NCBI GenBank assembly: GCA_001004265.1
Contig: LCQS01000004.1
Location: forward strand, 1 to 51,460
DNA: 51,460 nucleotides
Direction: 5' to 3'
From: Parcubacteria group bacterium GW2011_GWA2_51_10
GTDB taxonomy: Bacteria > Patescibacteriota > Minisyncoccia > Phycocordibacterales > UBA2100
Shown one piece after another: positions 25,652 to 31,628 of this stretch; within the stretch, counting starts at the first letter, position 1, and each line of letters begins with the position of its first letter. The notes under the pieces are model-generated. The model had not been told where the DNA came from. It worked only from the letters and a program-made list of their open reading frames with translations, and made no database searches. The translations under genes were made by a program, and so were the position numbers.

Positions 25652-26958
25652 ATGCTAGATATAACAGCGCTAACGATTGCTGGGGCAAGAAAAGGCCTCG
25701 ATAAAAAGGAGTATTCGGCGCAGGAGCTTACGAATGCGTGCCTTTCTGAAATTGAAAAGAGGGAGCCGAATATTCATGCATTTCTCGAGGTATGGATGGA
25801 TTCGGCGCGCGACGAGGCGAAAGCGGCAGATGAAATGATTGCGCGTGGTGAATCGCGATCGCTCACCGGTATTCCGCTTGCGATCAAAGACAATATTCTC
25901 ATCGAAGGCAGGCGCGCAAGCTCAGGCTCGAAGATATTGGAGAATTACGAAGCATCCTATAACGCGACCGTGATCGAGAAGCTTAAACGCGAGGGAGCCG
26001 TCTTTATCGGGCGCACAAACATGGATGAATTTGCCATGGGCTCATCCACAGAAAATTCGGCATTCGGACCGACAAAAAATCCCCACGACACTGCGCGCGT
26101 TCCCGGCGGCAGCTCCGGCGGAAGCGCCGCAGCGGTTGCTTGTGGAGCGGCACTCGGCGCACTCGGCTCTGACACCGGCGGCTCTATCAGACAGCCGGCA
26201 GCTTTTTGCGGCCTGGTGGGCCTCAAGCCGACCTACGGCTCCGTATCGCGCTTCGGTCTTATGGCAATGGGCTCTTCGCTCGATCAGATCGGCCCATTTG
26301 CAAAAACAGTCGCTGATGCGGAAATCATATTTGAAGCGATTAAGGGACATGATCCACTGGATAGCACCTCGTTTCCATCCGAAGAAGAAGCGTCGCCGCC
26401 GCAACGGAAAGTTATCGGAGTGCTGCGCAGTTTCATCGAGCGCGGCGGGATTGATCCAGAGATGCTCGCAAATTTCAATAGCGCGCTCGAACAATTAAAA
26501 AGCCGCGGCTTCACGGTAAAAGAAGTTGAACTGCCCTCGCTCGAATACGCACTCGCTGTCTACTACGTCCTCATGCCCGCGGAGGCGTCCACCAATCTCG
26601 CGCGCTATGACGGGATTCGCTACGGGCTATCCACTCCGGCAGAAACGATTCAAGAAGTATACAAAAAAACGCGAGGACAGGGCTTTGGAAGAGAGGTTCG
26701 GAGTCAGTCGATGCGATAGCAACTCCGACGACGCCTGCTCCCGCATTCAAATTCGGTGAGAAATCAGATCCGCTCTCTATGTACTTAGAGGATATATTCA
26801 CAGTGCCCGTGAATCTTGCCGGCGTGCCGGCGATTTCCGTTCCTTCGGGGATGGTGGAGAGGGACGGCTCTCTCCTTCCAGCTGGCTTTCAAATTATTGG
26901 TCCTTCCCGAAGCGAGAAAATGTTATTTGCTATCGGCAAATGCATAGAAAATACATAG
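25652..26958 (+). pseudogene. gatA: Glu/Asp-tRNA amidotransferase subunit A with an internal out-of-frame deletion
   Basis: The N-part (25652..26719) has the amidase signature GGSSGGSAAAV. After GFGREVR the frame stops. The C-part VDAIATPTTPAPAFKFGEK...NLAGVPAISVP continues in another frame to TAG 26956-26958. About 40 conserved residues are absent. Confidence 0.75.
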
Positions 26959-27076
26959 TATAATTTCCCCATGATCTCCGCCTTTTTGCGGAGACGATAT
27001 TGCCATGCACGGTCGAGTTTGCTACCAGAACGTAATTGCGCGGCGCGCGCTGAAAAACGCCGCCTGCTGCTAAAAG

Positions 27077-27787: not shown

Positions 27788-27895
27788 TCTCAACATTGTC
27801 CGGGCGGCCCGATTTGATTTACAAATGCGGAAGCCGTGGTAAAGTCTTGCGGGTATCCGGGCTATCAAAGCTCATTTTACTGATGGAGGTTCCAA

Positions 27896-28372
27896 ATGAT
27901 TGCCAAGCTGTGGGCTGCAATCGCTACGGTAATAGCCGCGGCACTGACGGTGCTGCACTTCGATAACCCGTATCCGCTCGTTCAGGTTCCCGATCGCGGG
28001 CATCGACTGTACGCCGTTCCGGCCGCACAGCATGCGCTGGTTGTGGACATTCTGAAAAGGTCAGGGCTGAGGCCCTTCGGCACTTTCACGGCCGGGATCA
28101 GGCAGACGCTGTTTGAGGACGGCATGACGGTGATCGCATCGGGCGCGGGGGTGGAGAAGGCAGCAATCTCGCTTCCGGTCGAAAATCCTCAAAAGAAAGC
28201 TGAGGAAATGAAGAAAGTTGTCCTGGCTGAATTCGGGATCGAAACGCAGCTCTGGACACCGCCCGATCCAGAATTGAAGGACAAGCTCGTCGTGCTGAAG
28301 TCCGCAAATCTTCCGCTCGACTTCGCCTACCGCCTGCCAGGCAATAAAATGCCATGGCCGAAGTGGGAATGA
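27896..28372 (+). CDS. Hypothetical secreted/membrane-anchored protein
   Basis: GGAGG SD, a hydrophobic N-terminus, and a clear terminator downstream. Confidence 0.5.
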   Translation: MIAKLWAAIATVIAAALTVLHFDNPYPLVQVPDRGHRLYAVPAAQHALVVDILKRSGLRPFGTFTAGIRQTLFEDGMTVIASGAGVEKAAISLPVENPQKKAEEMKKVVLAEFGIETQLWTPPDPELKDKLVVLKSANLPLDFAYRLPGNKMPWPKWE

Positions 28373-28392
28373 GGCGATCGACTGCCTTGCGA

Positions 28393-28422
28393 ACACTTCG
28401 GAGAGATCCGGAGTGTTTTTTT
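28393..28422 (+). terminator. Rho-independent terminator
   Basis: ACACTtCGGA-gaga-TCCGgAGTGT followed by TTTTTTT. Confidence 0.75.
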
Positions 28423-28635
28423 GCAGCATTTTGGTGCACTCTAGGGCTGGATTGACACCCTATTGCTGGCTGGCCTGCGCTTAGCCATTTGAAGAATTAA
28501 TCATCGATTCGAGAGCTCTGATGTTTTCGCTAATTGCTTCCATGGTATATAGCATATTTTCATCAATGAGGACTGAAGTTTGATTAGGGCAAGAAACCAT
28601 ATACCCCTGAAACATCAGTGTTCTTTACTGGGGGG

Positions 28636-29178
28636 TTACCGACCAAGTAACACAAGGGCCATGACACTTAAAGCGCGACCCGGGTGCACGCATAATTGTT
28701 TGTCCATTGTACTGTCCTCGAAGAAACGAGCGATTCGATCGTTATCGCTTCCACTGTCTGTTCTAAGCTTGAGAGATTTATATTTTCCGAATTCTCGCGT
28801 AAGAAAACTCTTGATATTTTCCTCGCTTACCAAATCTCCTGGCGAAGCTTGAATATCCATTTCGGCTGTGGGTAACCCGTCATATGGATAGGAGAGTGCT
28901 TTCCTGTATTGCTCAACATTTTCCGGTTTAATATTATGGACCCTTACCGCTTCGTTAAACGCTCCTTCTTCAGTTACCGTTTTTTTGATAATAAGTCCAG
29001 GATAAGCCGTTTTCATATCATTTGTAAGACTGGCTAGTTCCTCCGCTGATGATCCTCGTTGAAATATAAAAATCAAAGGACTTTTTGCCTTATCTCTCAG
29101 CCATATGCAAGAACCACTTGCACTTATCCAGAGTATTAAAAAAATTACGCCCAGCGCCATGAAGACATTTCTCATCAT
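28636..29178 (-). CDS. Hypothetical membrane-anchored protein in an AT-richer patch
   Basis: 180-aa ORF with an N-terminal TM segment and no recognisable domain. Confidence 0.45.
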   Translation of the reverse strand: MMRNVFMALGVIFLILWISASGSCIWLRDKAKSPLIFIFQRGSSAEELASLTNDMKTAYPGLIIKKTVTEEGAFNEAVRVHNIKPENVEQYRKALSYPYDGLPTAEMDIQASPGDLVSEENIKSFLTREFGKYKSLKLRTDSGSDNDRIARFFEDSTMDKQLCVHPGRALSVMALVLLGR

Positions 29179-29267
29179 CTACATTCTATCTTATTTTCTC
29201 GACACCCGGTCGAGGACGTAACTTGTTTCTCTCAGATGCAAAACCAGTCCGGCTTTCTACTATGCGT

Positions 29268-29450
29268 GTTGCGGGGGGCTAGACTCGTCGCTGCGCTCCT
29301 CTTTGAGAACCCACAGTTCTCAACGCTCGCAAGCTCGCTGCTCTCTTCCACAGGAAACTCCCGTTTCCTGGCACTTTCCCAGTCCTTCTCCCGCAACTCG
29401 CTGAAATGCAAAAATCCTCCCAAACTGAGAGGATTCTTGCTGCGAGTTGC
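29268..29450 (+). repeat. Repeat B (family R1, tRNA-fMet 3'-flank element), plus orientation
   Basis: Starts with GTTGCGGGGGGCTAGAC. Shares TCCACAGGAAACTCCCGTTTCCTGGCACTTTCCC, CCCGCAACTCGC, AAATGCAAAAA, GAGGATTCTTGCT and GCGAGTTGC with the reverse complement of 31030..31194. Confidence 0.8.
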
Positions 29451-29525
29451 ACTGGCAGGACGGGATTGGCACCTGATTCTGGTGTGGATGCGAGATGCGG
29501 CTGCAACTAGCGCTACGCCAGACTT
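29451..29525 (-). pseudogene. Degenerate remnant resembling the 3' half of tRNA-fMet
   Basis: The minus strand reads ..CAGGTGCcaatcccGTCCTGCCagtGCAACTCGC, against CAGGTGCAAGTCCTGCCCCCGCAACTCGC in the real gene. It cannot be folded into a cloverleaf. Confidence 0.35.
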
Positions 29526-29529
29526 AGTA

Positions 29530-29562
29530 CTCGCAAAATGCAACGCCCGCGTTAGCGGGCGT
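29530..29562 (-). terminator. GC-rich hairpin downstream of the minus-strand ORF 29581..29850
   Basis: ACGCCCGC-gtta-GCGGGCGT. On the minus strand it is followed by TGCATTTTG. Confidence 0.5.
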
Positions 29563-29580
29563 GCGTAGTGGCGAACTTCA

Positions 29581-29850
29581 CTACGTCCATAGATCGGCGA
29601 GTGCTTCCGGTGTCAGATCGCTCGGCGCATGCGGGACAAGACTCCCGCCGAGCCCGATTATTGCGCGAGCCTTATTGATCGTGTCCTTCGGAATCGTTTC
29701 CGTGAATGTTCCTTTGAGTGCGGAAACGAAGTCGCCTCGGCTTTGCGCATCGAAGAACGCCTGTACAACCGGGTTGGTGCTTTTTGCGTAGAACATGTGA
29801 GGGTCCTCCTCCAGGTTTAGCAGTATGTCTTTTATTTCAAAATCGGGCAT
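29581..29850 (-). CDS. Hypothetical 89-aa protein
   Basis: ORF with a downstream hairpin and no recognisable motif. Confidence 0.4.
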   Translation of the reverse strand: MPDFEIKDILLNLEEDPHMFYAKSTNPVVQAFFDAQSRGDFVSALKGTFTETIPKDTINKARAIIGLGGSLVPHAPSDLTPEALADLWT

Positions 29851-29895
29851 GTGTCAAGGCCACCAGATTTCTGGTGCAAAATGCGTCCTATTTCT

Positions 29896-29937
29896 GTTGC
29901 GGGGGCTAGACTCGTCGCTGCGCTCCTCTTTGAGAAC
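29896..29937 (+). repeat. Repeat C: truncated copy of the first ~40 nt of repeat B
   Basis: GTTGCGGGGGCTAGACTCGTCGCTGCGCTCCTCTTTGAGAAC is almost identical to 29268..29310. Confidence 0.8.
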
Positions 29938-29962
29938 TCCCATTTCGACAGTTGGGACTACT

Positions 29963-30646
29963 TCAAGAAGCGTATCCTGCGACAGCAGAAATTGAACCGA
30001 GAATCTGTCGCCGCAGTGCTGTGGCCCTACGGACTTTAACTCGAAGTGTCCCGAAATGCGTGGTCGTGTTTGTGTACACTTTGCGAGATTGCACTTTTAT
30101 GAGGCTTGCTTGAGTAAATTGTGACGAGGATATACCTGTTACGCGAGCCCAATATCTTTCAACCACACCTATACGACTCTTATGTGCCTCATTAATTGAC
30201 ACCCTCAGGATCAAATGCTTTTTAGAAATCCCGTATGTTTCAAAGACCCATCTGATAAAGGCCCGGATAATGTCAGGATTACTATTTGTAAAGCCGCATT
30301 CCTCGTTTCCTTTTTTGTAACCCTCTCCCCAGTAGAGACCGAGTCCCAACATAAAGAAGTCGCGTTTCGTAATATTTCCGACTTCACGACGACCTCTATC
30401 TTCTGCAAGTCGCGTATCGAGAATTCTTTGAGCGCGTTTCTTTTCTGATGATATTAGCCGTCCTATTCTGCCACCTGCTTCTCTTCTTTCAGCCAACCTC
30501 CGTAATTGCGCGCTGCTCAATTGAATGTCTCTGCACCAGTAGCTCACGGTACTCTTACTTGTGTATAGATCTCTCGCAATTTCATTAATGCTCCGCCCTT
30601 TCATTCGGAGCTTACAAGCTTTGTCTCGGAGTTCGACATCTGCCAT
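29963..30646 (-). CDS. HTH domain plus single-motif LAGLIDADG-like putative homing endonuclease
   Basis: N-terminal GRSINEIARDLYTSKSTVSYW (HTH). FFMLGLGLYWGEGYK then FTNSNPDIIRAFIRWV resembles the LAGLIDADG helix and following strands. Confidence 0.5.
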   Translation of the reverse strand: MADVELRDKACKLRMKGRSINEIARDLYTSKSTVSYWCRDIQLSSAQLRRLAERREAGGRIGRLISSEKKRAQRILDTRLAEDRGRREVGNITKRDFFMLGLGLYWGEGYKKGNEECGFTNSNPDIIRAFIRWVFETYGISKKHLILRVSINEAHKSRIGVVERYWARVTGISSSQFTQASLIKVQSRKVYTNTTTHFGTLRVKVRRATALRRQILGSISAVAGYAS

Positions 30647-30730
30647 CCGACCAGCATATCATAAGGTAGCTACATACATTATCGGTTGTGCAGTACTTGT
30701 GTGAATATATCGAACATGTATAGTAATAAA

Positions 30731-31029
30731 AGCGGGGTGGAGCAGTAGTAGCTCGCAAGGCTCAAATGGGCTCATTCAGCAGTAATGCTGGATGGAACAT
30801 CTGTCAAAGTCGGTGAAATCTTATTCGCAGTGCGAAGTGACAATACCGAGCCAAGTCCAGAGAGTAATCGAAGGAAAGGTGTAGAGACTAGACGGCAGAT
30901 TCCCGAACGTAAAGTCGAGGGAAAAGGTATAGTCCAGACCACAAATCTTATCCATTGGGATGAGAGCGATGAAAATCGTAGATGGAATGCATAACCTTGA
31001 GGTCGCAGGTGCAAGTCCTGCCCCCGCAA
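30731..31029 (+). tRNA. Initiator-type tRNA-Met (anticodon CAT) interrupted by a group I intron
   Basis: Exons 30731..30762 and 30990..31029 join to AGCGGGGTGGAGCAGTAGTAGCTCGCAAGGCT|CATAACCTTGAGGTCGCAGGTGCAAGTCCTGCCCCCGCAA. This is collinear with canonical bacterial tRNA-fMet. Confidence 0.8.
30763..30989 (+). ncRNA. Group I intron (IC3-like tRNA intron), no internal ORF
   Basis: P1 GCUC/GGGC with a U.G at the splice site; terminal G at 30989. GNRA hairpins CAGCA-GUAA-UGCUG and GCGAU-GAAA-AUCGU. Core strings GUCAAAGUCGGUGAAA, CCGAGCCAAGUCC, GGUGUAGAGACUAGACGGCAG and AAGGUAUAGUCC. Confidence 0.8.
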
Positions 31030-31194
31030 CTCGCAAGCAAGAATCCTCCGCAAGGAGGGTTTTTGCATTTGAATTTTGCGAGTTGCGGGGGCAGGGCCGG
31101 GAAAGTGTCAGGAAACGGGAGTTTCCTGTGGAGGAAGGCAGGGCGAAGCCCGCTGGAAAACCGTGGGTTTCCAGAATGTCTAGTCCCCCGCAAC
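31030..31194 (-). repeat. Repeat D (family R1), inverted relative to B, abutting the tRNA 3' end
   Basis: See repeat B. It ends with a second direct copy of CCCCCGCAAC (31185-31194; first copy 31021-31030). An inverted copy GTTGCGGGGG lies at 31082-31091. Confidence 0.8.
31045..31064 (+). terminator. Rho-independent terminator after tRNA-fMet
   Basis: CCTCC-gcaa-GGAGG followed by GTTTTT. Confidence 0.7.
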
Positions 31195-31303
31195 AAAAAA
31201 ACTGATAGGAACTTCCATACCATTTTTGGTATGGAGGAAGGGCTTCGAAAGGGGTCGAAAAAGATTTATTTTTAGAGACGCATACCGATAATCCCTGGAT
31301 TTT

Positions 31304-31555: not shown

Positions 31556-31628
31556 GCCGGCGTAGCTCAGTGGTAGTAGCGGACGTTTCATAAGCGTCAG
31601 GTCGCAGGTCCGATTCCTGCCGCCGGCA
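31556..31628 (+). tRNA. tRNA-Met or Ile2 (anticodon CAT), elongator type
   Basis: Acceptor GCCGGCG/CGCCGGC, anticodon loop TTCATAA, T-arm GCAGG-TCCGATT-CCTGC. Confidence 0.85.

Follow-up and report, generated by a model that had tools for sequence, protein, structure and literature searches.

Positions 30731-31029 of the 51,460-nt window analysed here (contig LCQS01000004.1, positions 1 to 51,460 of the forward strand) very probably constitute an initiator tRNA gene of Parcubacteria/Kaiserbacteria-like type that is interrupted between U33 and C34 by a 227-nt group I intron of the IC3 type. The intron contains no open reading frame (ORF) and, judged from the conservation of its sequence, is predicted to splice. 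The feature is real though not fundamentally new, since the same kind of intron is known from cyanobacterial tRNA-fMet. Both tRNA-fMet group I introns and rRNA insertions in the Candidate Phyla Radiation (CPR) were known already, and the novelty is the extension of the host range to a CPR initiator gene. The tRNA-fMet group I intron, long deemed a cyanobacterial curiosity, would thereby extend to this radiation.

tRNA exons and splice junctions

The gene is divided as follows:

30731-30762, forward strand: 5' exon of tRNA(CAU), comprising the acceptor 5' strand, the D-arm (A11:U24; 7-nt D-loop AGUAGUA with A18), the anticodon-stem 5' strand, C32 and U33 (ARAGORN on the joined exons)
30763-30989, forward strand: group I (IC3) intron, 227 nt, ORF-less (RF00028, covariation and minimum free energy fold)
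30990-31029, forward strand: 3' exon, comprising the anticodon CAU, A37 and A38, the anticodon-stem 3' strand, the variable loop, the T-arm (T-loop UGCAAGU with G55) and the acceptor 3' strand with A72; discriminator A73, CCA not encoded

Joining of the two exons gives 72 nt that ARAGORN recognizes as tRNA-Met(cat) and that RNAfold folds into a cloverleaf of -29.9 kcal/mol, in agreement with the 72-nt cloverleaf that the original prediction, made from the letters of the window, had assigned to these coordinates. The first 26 nt of the 5' exon are the same in the Kaiserbacteria orthologue L108 (loci outside the window are designated by L and a number) and in intron-less orthologues. The dinucleotide CA is repeated at both intron borders, so that three cut positions yield one and the same spliced product (...GGCU CAU AACC...). 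The U33/C34 junction is the sole one of these equivalent cuts with a U-ending exon and a G-ending intron. Because group I chemistry demands these two terminal bases, we placed the end of the 5' exon at U30762 (position 33) and the start of the 3' exon at C30990 (position 34).

Intron-less metagenomic alleles of the same unusual tRNA (L126, L142, L147, L203, L216 and L235) read GCTCG.....GGCTCATAACC....., and the exact junction reading of intron-less orthologues in the same gene neighbourhood is CTCATAACC; the sequence of an intron-less Parcubacteria allele is GCTCGCCAGGCTCATAACCTGGAGG. Four of these alleles (L126, L147, L203, L235) score 58-61 bits as tRNA in Rfam. Exact removal of the intron leaves a cloverleaf whose anticodon loop equals that of the intron-less orthologues. 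As these alleles match the spliced product, the position of the junction is independently confirmed.

Neither ARAGORN in default mode nor the Rfam tRNA model detected a tRNA gene at 30731-31029. Genomes of this kind would therefore be annotated as being without initiator tRNA. ARAGORN in intron mode detected the gene, placed the junction two bases off and labelled it tRNA-Leu(caa). The check with a tRNA finder that had been proposed together with the prediction thus succeeded on the joined exons, which were called tRNA-Met(cat), and failed in intron mode, where both junction and label were wrong. We rejected the tRNA-Leu(caa) junction, as it has no U before the 5' splice site and no intron-terminal G. 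That this junction (...CTCAA / AACC...), giving the anticodon CAA, should be the true one is scarcely conceivable: apart from the intron-mode output that proposes it, the variable arm of the tRNA is short, which is not the case in tRNA-Leu, and the intron-less orthologues carry the reading CTCATAACC.

Intron core and covariation

A scan of the whole window with the Rfam model Intron_gpI (RF00028) returned one match, at 30693-30959, with 57.3 bits and E=5e-12. This lies above the gathering score of 50 bits and bears out the group I assignment, for which this very search had been suggested. For the window and five relatives with the same host gene the scores were 57.3, 71.7, 62.1, 60.6, 56.7 and 51.7 bits, all above the gathering score. 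The model alignment is good from P3 to J8/7, wrongly puts P1 and P2 upstream of the tRNA and ends before P9; for this reason the P1/P2 and P9 helices were redrawn by hand. The resulting elements, all on the forward strand, are:

30759-30763 / 30768-30772, forward strand: P1, 5 bp (G30759.U30772, G30760-C30771, C30761-G30770, U30762.G30769, C30763-G30768), loop AAAU
30773-30794, forward strand: P2, 9 bp, GUAA tetraloop at 30782-30785; 9/9 pairs changed on both sides among relatives
30799-30805, forward strand: P3 5' strand AUCUGUC, partner 30894-30900; compensatory changes in 4/7 pairs
30810-30815 / 30844-30849, forward strand: P4, 100% paired; U-A to G-C switch in 4 sequences
30816-30818, forward strand: J4/5, AAA
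30819-30840, forward strand: P5 and P5a hairpin; 5/5 pairs of P5a compensated
30850-30852 / 30878-30880, forward strand: P6, invariant
within 30850-30880, forward strand: P6a hairpin, tandem G.A pairs, loop GUAA; stem compensated among relatives
30884-30890, forward strand: P7 5' strand, G-(A bulge)-GACUA, pairing with UAGUCC at 30930-30935; predicted guanosine-binding helix, pseudoknotted with P3
30894-30900, forward strand: P3 3' strand GGCAGAU, partner 30799-30805
30901-30922, forward strand: P8 hairpin with asymmetric internal loop; stem pairs compensated, distal alignment poor
30923-30935, forward strand: J8/7 (AAAAGGUA) and P7 3' strand (UAGUCC); family-invariant AAGG.AUAGUCCAG
30938-30986, forward strand: P9 domain, closing stem 30938-30942 / 30981-30986; 3/5 pairs compensated
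30946-30965, forward strand: P9a hairpin; 6/8 pairs compensated
30967-30978, forward strand: P9b hairpin with invariant GAAA loop; 4/4 pairs compensated
30989, forward strand: terminal guanosine (omega-G) at the 3' splice site, just before CAUAA; G in 10/10 aligned introns

The hand-drawn helices were scored on alignment A1, in which MAFFT aligned the window intron with nine relatives. In this alignment 90.1% of the cells are standard-paired, compared to 32-44% in slid controls with the 3' partners moved by 1-3 columns, and changes on both sides occur in 43/71 pairs, compared to 10-18 in these controls. None of 500 shuffles attained any of the five measures. Compensatory changes are plentiful in P2, P5a, P6a, P9, P9a and P9b. 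P6, P7 and most of P4 are invariant within A1 and, as P6 and P7 never vary there, these two helices are neither supported nor contradicted by it. P7 is the same in 10/10 aligned introns; in L206 it reads GACUU/AAGUC, an A-U to U-A change. The minimum free energy fold of the intron alone (z=-3.94) recovered P2, P4-P5a, P6a, P8, P9a and P9b. Altogether, the intron possesses the full IC3 core, with helices P1 to P9 including the P3/P7 pseudoknot.

At the 5' splice site, the wobble pair of P1 is formed by U30762 and G30769, as had been anticipated for U33. The automatic count on A1 found no P1 pair changed on both sides. Inspection of A1 by eye showed that the tRNA-Ile2 relative L075 has the guide GGGU opposite the exon sequence ACU, where the window has GGGC opposite GCU. 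At the other end, the terminal G30989 ahead of CAUAA, also part of the original prediction, is borne out by the sequence and is invariant across the alignment. In contrast to the two GNRA-capped hairpins that had been counted before, three are present, with the loops L2 (GUAA, 30782-30785), L6a (GUAA, 30864-30867) and L9b (GAAA, 30971-30974); a GNRA loop on P2 is retained in 8/10 aligned introns. The intron encodes no PD-(D/E)XK endonuclease, and with a length of 227 nt and a P1 loop consisting only of AAAU it offers no room for an endonuclease ORF. The four-base P1 loop is also too small to hold a P10 guide.

A true group I intron may still need a protein helper, such as a chaperone or a maturase-like protein, in the cell. 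P5 is without the textbook 11-nt tetraloop receptor and P8 varies between relatives, which would fit such a dependence. We regard it as unlikely, since the related IC3 tRNA introns of Azoarcus and Anabaena self-splice efficiently in vitro (PMC3984707), the three GNRA loops and the entire core are conserved, and the intron is ORF-less.

Initiator identity of the host tRNA

The exons carry the initiator marks A1.A72 mismatch, G2:C71, C3:G70, A73, A11:U24, G30:C40 and G31:C39. The unpaired 1:72 position noted earlier is thus confirmed as A1.A72, and orthologues have A.A or C.A. The strict signature of three G:C pairs (29:41, 30:40, 31:39) is not complete, as 29:41 is A:U. The earlier description of an anticodon stem with only two G:C pairs is accordingly correct for the signature pairs and incorrect for the whole stem, which also contains C27:G43.

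A metagenome scan with the 5'-exon string yielded 120 loci, from which 114 intron-less tRNA(CAU) genes were parsed. The anticodon is CAT in 114/114, the 1:72 pair is non-standard in 108/114, and A29:U41 occurs in 21/114. Since so many initiator-like genes share it, A29:U41 represents a recurrent natural variant and not damage. Furthermore, an elongator-type tRNA(CAU) with G1:C72 is located at 31556-31628, 530 nt downstream. On the basis of the exon marks, the recurrence of A29:U41 and this separate tRNA(CAU) nearby, the assignment of the exons as an initiator-type tRNA(CAU) was accepted, and it agrees with the ARAGORN result on the joined exons.

The alternative that the host is an elongator tRNA-Met or a tRNA-Ile2 (with lysidine-modified CAU), like that of the Azoarcus intron, is highly improbable. 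It would account for the presence of two instead of three signature G:C pairs, and same-site introns do occur in the tRNA-Ile2-like loci L075, L016, L066 and L118 and in the viral loci L298, L302 and L312. It conflicts with the 1:72 mismatch, with A11:U24 and with acceptor and D stems equal to those of canonical tRNA-fMet (e.g. L067). The frequency of A29:U41 among initiator-like genes and the adjoining G1:C72 elongator-type tRNA(CAU) likewise favour the initiator assignment.

The D-loop (30744-30750) and the T-loop (31011-31017) of this initiator-type tRNA carry A18 and G55, the latter within UGCAA where UUCAA is usual. The loci of the A18/G55 clade are L108, L126, L142, L147, L167, L174, L203, L216 and L235. 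A18 is found together with G55 in 6/6 intron-less genes of this clade, and the same holds for four intron-bearing genes (window, L108, L167, L174). G18 is found together with U55 in 108/108 genes of the metagenome sample. The elbow contact of the tRNA covaries cleanly between A18/G55 and G18/U55.

In its 3' half, over the stretch that spans anticodon to T-arm, the elongator-type tRNA at 31556-31628 shows 81% identity to 30990-31026 of the initiator gene. A tRNA-fMet gene followed by tRNA-Met is also found in L031, L216 and L235. At L141:1608-1700, an initiator-type body with three G:C pairs and the same 5' exon string has the loop CUAAUGA and therefore the anticodon AAU instead of CAU.

Host lineage, synteny and intron distribution

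The window encodes RecG, LigA, GatC, GatA, ArgG and ArgH, and the stretch common to the window and contig L001 also includes genes whose products have RF (PCRF/RF-1), FtsE/X-type and CTP-synthase domains. At >99.9% identity, the window matches contigs of two metagenome assemblies. The host organism is related to Candidatus Kaiserbacteria (CPR), which belongs within the Parcubacteria group of Patescibacteria/CPR. In gatA (25652-27070), 113 nt at about 26700 are absent in comparison with the otherwise >99.9% identical L001 and L002, and gatA is consequently split into the ORFs 25652-26719 and 26611-26955. The cause is either variation within the population or an error in assembly.

Among the genome matches listed in a scan of genome contigs for the IC3 core pattern (at least 120 matches), the same interrupted tRNA was found only in L108, Candidatus Kaiserbacteria RIFCSPHIGHO2_01_FULL_54_36, which is 78% identical to the interrupted gene of the window across all 299 nt. 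L108 is syntenic with the window (LigA 71%, GatA 67% and a 236-aa ORF 53% identity, followed by the tRNA). The gene order ligA-gatC-gatA-ORF236-tRNA also occurs in L167, with the intron, and in L126 and L147, without it, which implies that the presence of the intron is polymorphic among relatives. The insert position in L108 and L167 is identical to that in the window. In the unbiased sample obtained with the 5'-exon string, 2/8 genes of this tRNA subtype and 1/~110 of the other initiator-like genes bear an intron.

Introns of tRNA-Leu(UAA) genes in Alpha- and Betaproteobacteria, Acidobacteriota, Chloroflexota and Bacteroidota make up most of the IC3 matches listed, and tRNA-Leu(UAA) is the commonest host among the matches listed (73/~124 in genomes, 71/120 in viral contigs). 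The remark in the original prediction that tRNA group I introns are classically cyanobacterial or proteobacterial therefore proved too narrow, as IC3 tRNA introns also occur in Acidobacteriota, Chloroflexota, Bacteroidota, CPR and viral contigs. In IMG/VR contigs (L243-L362) the IC3 pattern gave at least 120 matches, mostly tRNA-Leu(UAA) introns and several tRNA-Ile2(CAU) introns. According to a 2014 review, all phage introns then known were located in protein-coding genes.

Several points weigh against an interrupted initiator gene that is functional. Its splicing is predicted from conservation, and a second, uninterrupted initiator gene may lie beyond the 51 kb in view. The RF00028 score exceeds the threshold by only 7 bits. 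Only two of the three signature initiator G:C pairs are present in the anticodon stem, and G55 in the T-loop and A18 in the D-loop are unusual for any tRNA, though conserved in the clade and co-varying. Finally, the surroundings of the locus are rearranged and contain many partial tRNA 3'-end copies.

These points bear most directly on the possibility that the window holds a disabled copy, in which the intron splices poorly or not at all while another, uninterrupted initiator gene serves the cell. Two observations would suit it: the extent of the genome in view is 51 kb, and the degenerate tRNA 3'-end copies around the locus, together with a 3-kb insertion that relatives lack, point to rearrangement of the region. 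In CPR, with their small genomes, tRNAs are usually single-copy, which speaks against a spare initiator gene. Moreover, the gene is found where synteny with the relatives places the initiator gene, its exons equal those of the orthologues save for co-varying stem positions, and all invariant positions of the intron core are intact. A disabled copy is hence very unlikely, and we favour an intact initiator gene with an intron that is predicted to splice.

A same-site intron family and its relation to known introns

The U33/C34 site is also used in L031, a divergent CPR-like initiator gene, and in the tRNA-Ile2-like genes L075, L118 and, on viral contigs, L298, L302 and L312. Two elongator-type tRNA(CAU) genes, L016 (minus strand, a 695-nt gene ending at L016:4746) and L066:524-1218, have an intron of ~620 nt at U33/C34, and an HNH-endonuclease ORF lies on the opposite strand in the P1 loop of these introns. 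The canonical tRNA-fMet genes L067:2553-3268 and L206:280-1000 contain introns of 639 and 648 nt, respectively, at U33/C34. In both, an ORF begins in the P1 loop, which in L206 is frameshifted. The L067 ORF matches PDB 2OST (I-Ssp6803I, the endonuclease of the Synechocystis tRNA-fMet intron) with E=6e-47, and the L067 ribozyme is 69% identical to the window intron over 209 nt.

As these same-site introns of L067 and L206 encode I-Ssp6803I homologues, the window intron most plausibly represents an ORF-less member of the mobile family of tRNA-fMet introns, with a probable link to the Synechocystis intron that passes through L067 and L206. The protein family of I-Ssp6803I, PF11645, has >1500 members, some of which are named 'group I intron-associated PD-(D/E)XK endonuclease' by NCBI, and among the matches listed many carry an Omnitrophota label. 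This size and these labels imply that the mobile intron of tRNA-fMet is spread far more widely than the cyanobacterial literature suggests. One intron family occupies U33/C34 of CAU-anticodon tRNAs across distant phyla, as seen in the window and related loci, and three types of endonuclease occur around it: PD-(D/E)XK, HNH and a neighbouring GIY-YIG.

The last of these was observed in L174:502-831, just 5' of the intron-bearing tRNA-fMet, where the 5' part of the tRNA is partly duplicated, with the D-arm of the duplicate interrupted by a hairpin-forming insert, and a small GIY-YIG-type ORF follows. This ORF may encode a free-standing homing endonuclease tied to the same target.

Biniszkiewicz and co-workers reportedly described in 1994 a group I intron in cyanobacterial tRNA-fMet, in Synechocystis PCC 6803, Dermocarpa and Scytonema. 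The Synechocystis intron is 655 nt long and has an ORF of 150 codons (PMC1995217), and ORF-less forms in other cyanobacteria are mentioned in a passage of PMC5733544 that cites Biniszkiewicz 1994. The cyanobacterial intron resembles that of the window in its initiator host, its insertion in the anticodon loop, its IC3-type ribozyme and the existence of ORF-less and ORF-bearing versions. In contrast, the host of the window intron is of the CPR/Parcubacteria type, the intron lacks an endonuclease ORF, and the tRNA carries A18/G55 and A29:U41. Identity of RNA and insertion site between the Synechocystis intron (GenBank U10482) and that of the window was deduced through L067 and L206.

The Azoarcus-type tRNA-Ile intron shares with the window the near-identical core strings GUCAAA.UCGG.GAAA, CCGAGCCAAG and GGUGUAGAGACUAGACGGCA, which were retrieved in the Azoarcus-type betaproteobacterial introns L004, L059, L063 and L070. 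Both also have a CAU anticodon, and their loops L2 and L9 are GNRA tetraloops. The core strings that the first look at the sequence had taken for IC3-type were indeed found in >240 IC3 tRNA introns of genomic and viral-contig origin, Azoarcus-type tRNA-Ile(CAU) introns among them. The Azoarcus type differs in its insertion after U36 (CAU/A) of a tRNA-Ile2, whereas the window intron follows U33 (U/CAU), and in having a single hairpin as P9, where the window has three helices (P9, P9a, P9b) and a P6a with an extra GUAA loop. The IC3 intron of tRNA-Leu(UAA), which is cyanobacterial and plastid and widespread in bacteria, has the fold and the core in common with the window intron but resides in another tRNA, at U34/A35, with another P1 guide.

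Group I introns are also known from CPR genes for 16S and 23S rRNA (Brown et al. 2015; Tsurumaki et al. 2024, PMC11270868). These share with the window intron the host radiation and the nature of self-splicing insertions in essential RNA genes, and they differ in their host genes and in often encoding LAGLIDADG proteins. A review states that insertions occur in CPR tRNA genes too (PMC9698310), and in the literature searched we found no paper describing a group I intron in a CPR tRNA-fMet.

Proposed splicing pathway and its implications

In the pathway that we propose, the primary transcript would fold into the ribozyme, and P1 would arise by pairing of the last exon bases, G-G-C-U33, with the internal guide GGGCU. 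The attack after U33 would come from exogenous guanosine or GTP occupying P7, G30989 would next take the place of this guanosine in the P7 pocket, and the freed 3'-OH of U33 would attack before C34 and thereby ligate the exons. The tRNA's own anticodon stem, rather than a P10 helix, would hold the exons together, by analogy with work on the Anabaena intron as cited in PMC3984707. RNase P, 3' trimming and CCA addition would complete the tRNA, the last step being necessary because CCA is not encoded.

With regard to its origin, the intron would belong to a family that moves laterally into precisely this site of tRNA genes with a CAU anticodon and in which some members carry homing endonuclease genes, either of the I-Ssp6803I-type PD-(D/E)XK or of the HNH kind. 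Lacking an endonuclease gene, the copy in the window would be kept by inheritance and by phenotypic neutrality for as long as splicing continues.

Should no second copy of the gene exist, a bacterium with a minimal genome would rely on RNA self-splicing for an essential step of its translation. A more far-reaching version of this idea, in which the sole initiator gene is interrupted, all initiation depends on the ribozyme, and the dependence of splicing on guanosine nucleotides and Mg2+ serves as a checkpoint that ties initiator tRNA supply to the growth state, appears quite unlikely to us. The clade-specific A18/G55 elbow may also be involved in such a checkpoint.

Insertion and repeats around the locus

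The region of ~3 kb between ORF236 and the tRNA-fMet gene (27800-30700) is absent from the syntenic loci L108, L126, L147 and L167. It contains the following ORFs:

27896-28372, forward strand: ORF
28636-29178, reverse strand: ORF
29581-29850, reverse strand: ORF
29963-30646, reverse strand: ORF

Searches of these ORFs against Pfam and PHROG assigned no function, apart from weak matches of the 227-aa ORF to DUF3606 and to a PHROG transcriptional regulator.

Downstream of the intron, the tRNA gene runs into a repeat structure that includes:

31037-31066, forward strand: terminator-like hairpin with T-run, 8 nt past the tRNA (consensus scan)

The last 15 nt of the tRNA lie inside an 83-bp palindrome (31015-31097; fold z=-8.4) that contains the terminator hairpin, which is flanked by a perfect 20-bp inverted repeat (31017-31036 / 31076-31095). 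An E-value scan of 30600-31250 with Rfam gave nothing credible for the downstream palindrome or repeat element. A block of ~185 nt (31015-31197) has an inverted, ~88% identical copy at 29265-29461, 1.55 kb upstream. Over 2 kb there are several degenerate copies of T-arm and acceptor 3' strand, at 29268-29294 (reverse strand), 29896-29922 (reverse strand) and 31178-31194 (forward strand). These repeats are probably the scars of integrative elements that targeted the 3' end of tRNA-fMet, combined with an inversion. In L235, L203 and L067, too, the tRNA is followed by similar copies, both inverted and direct, and in the window CCCCCGCAAC is present in five exact copies among the scattered tRNA 3'-end repeats.

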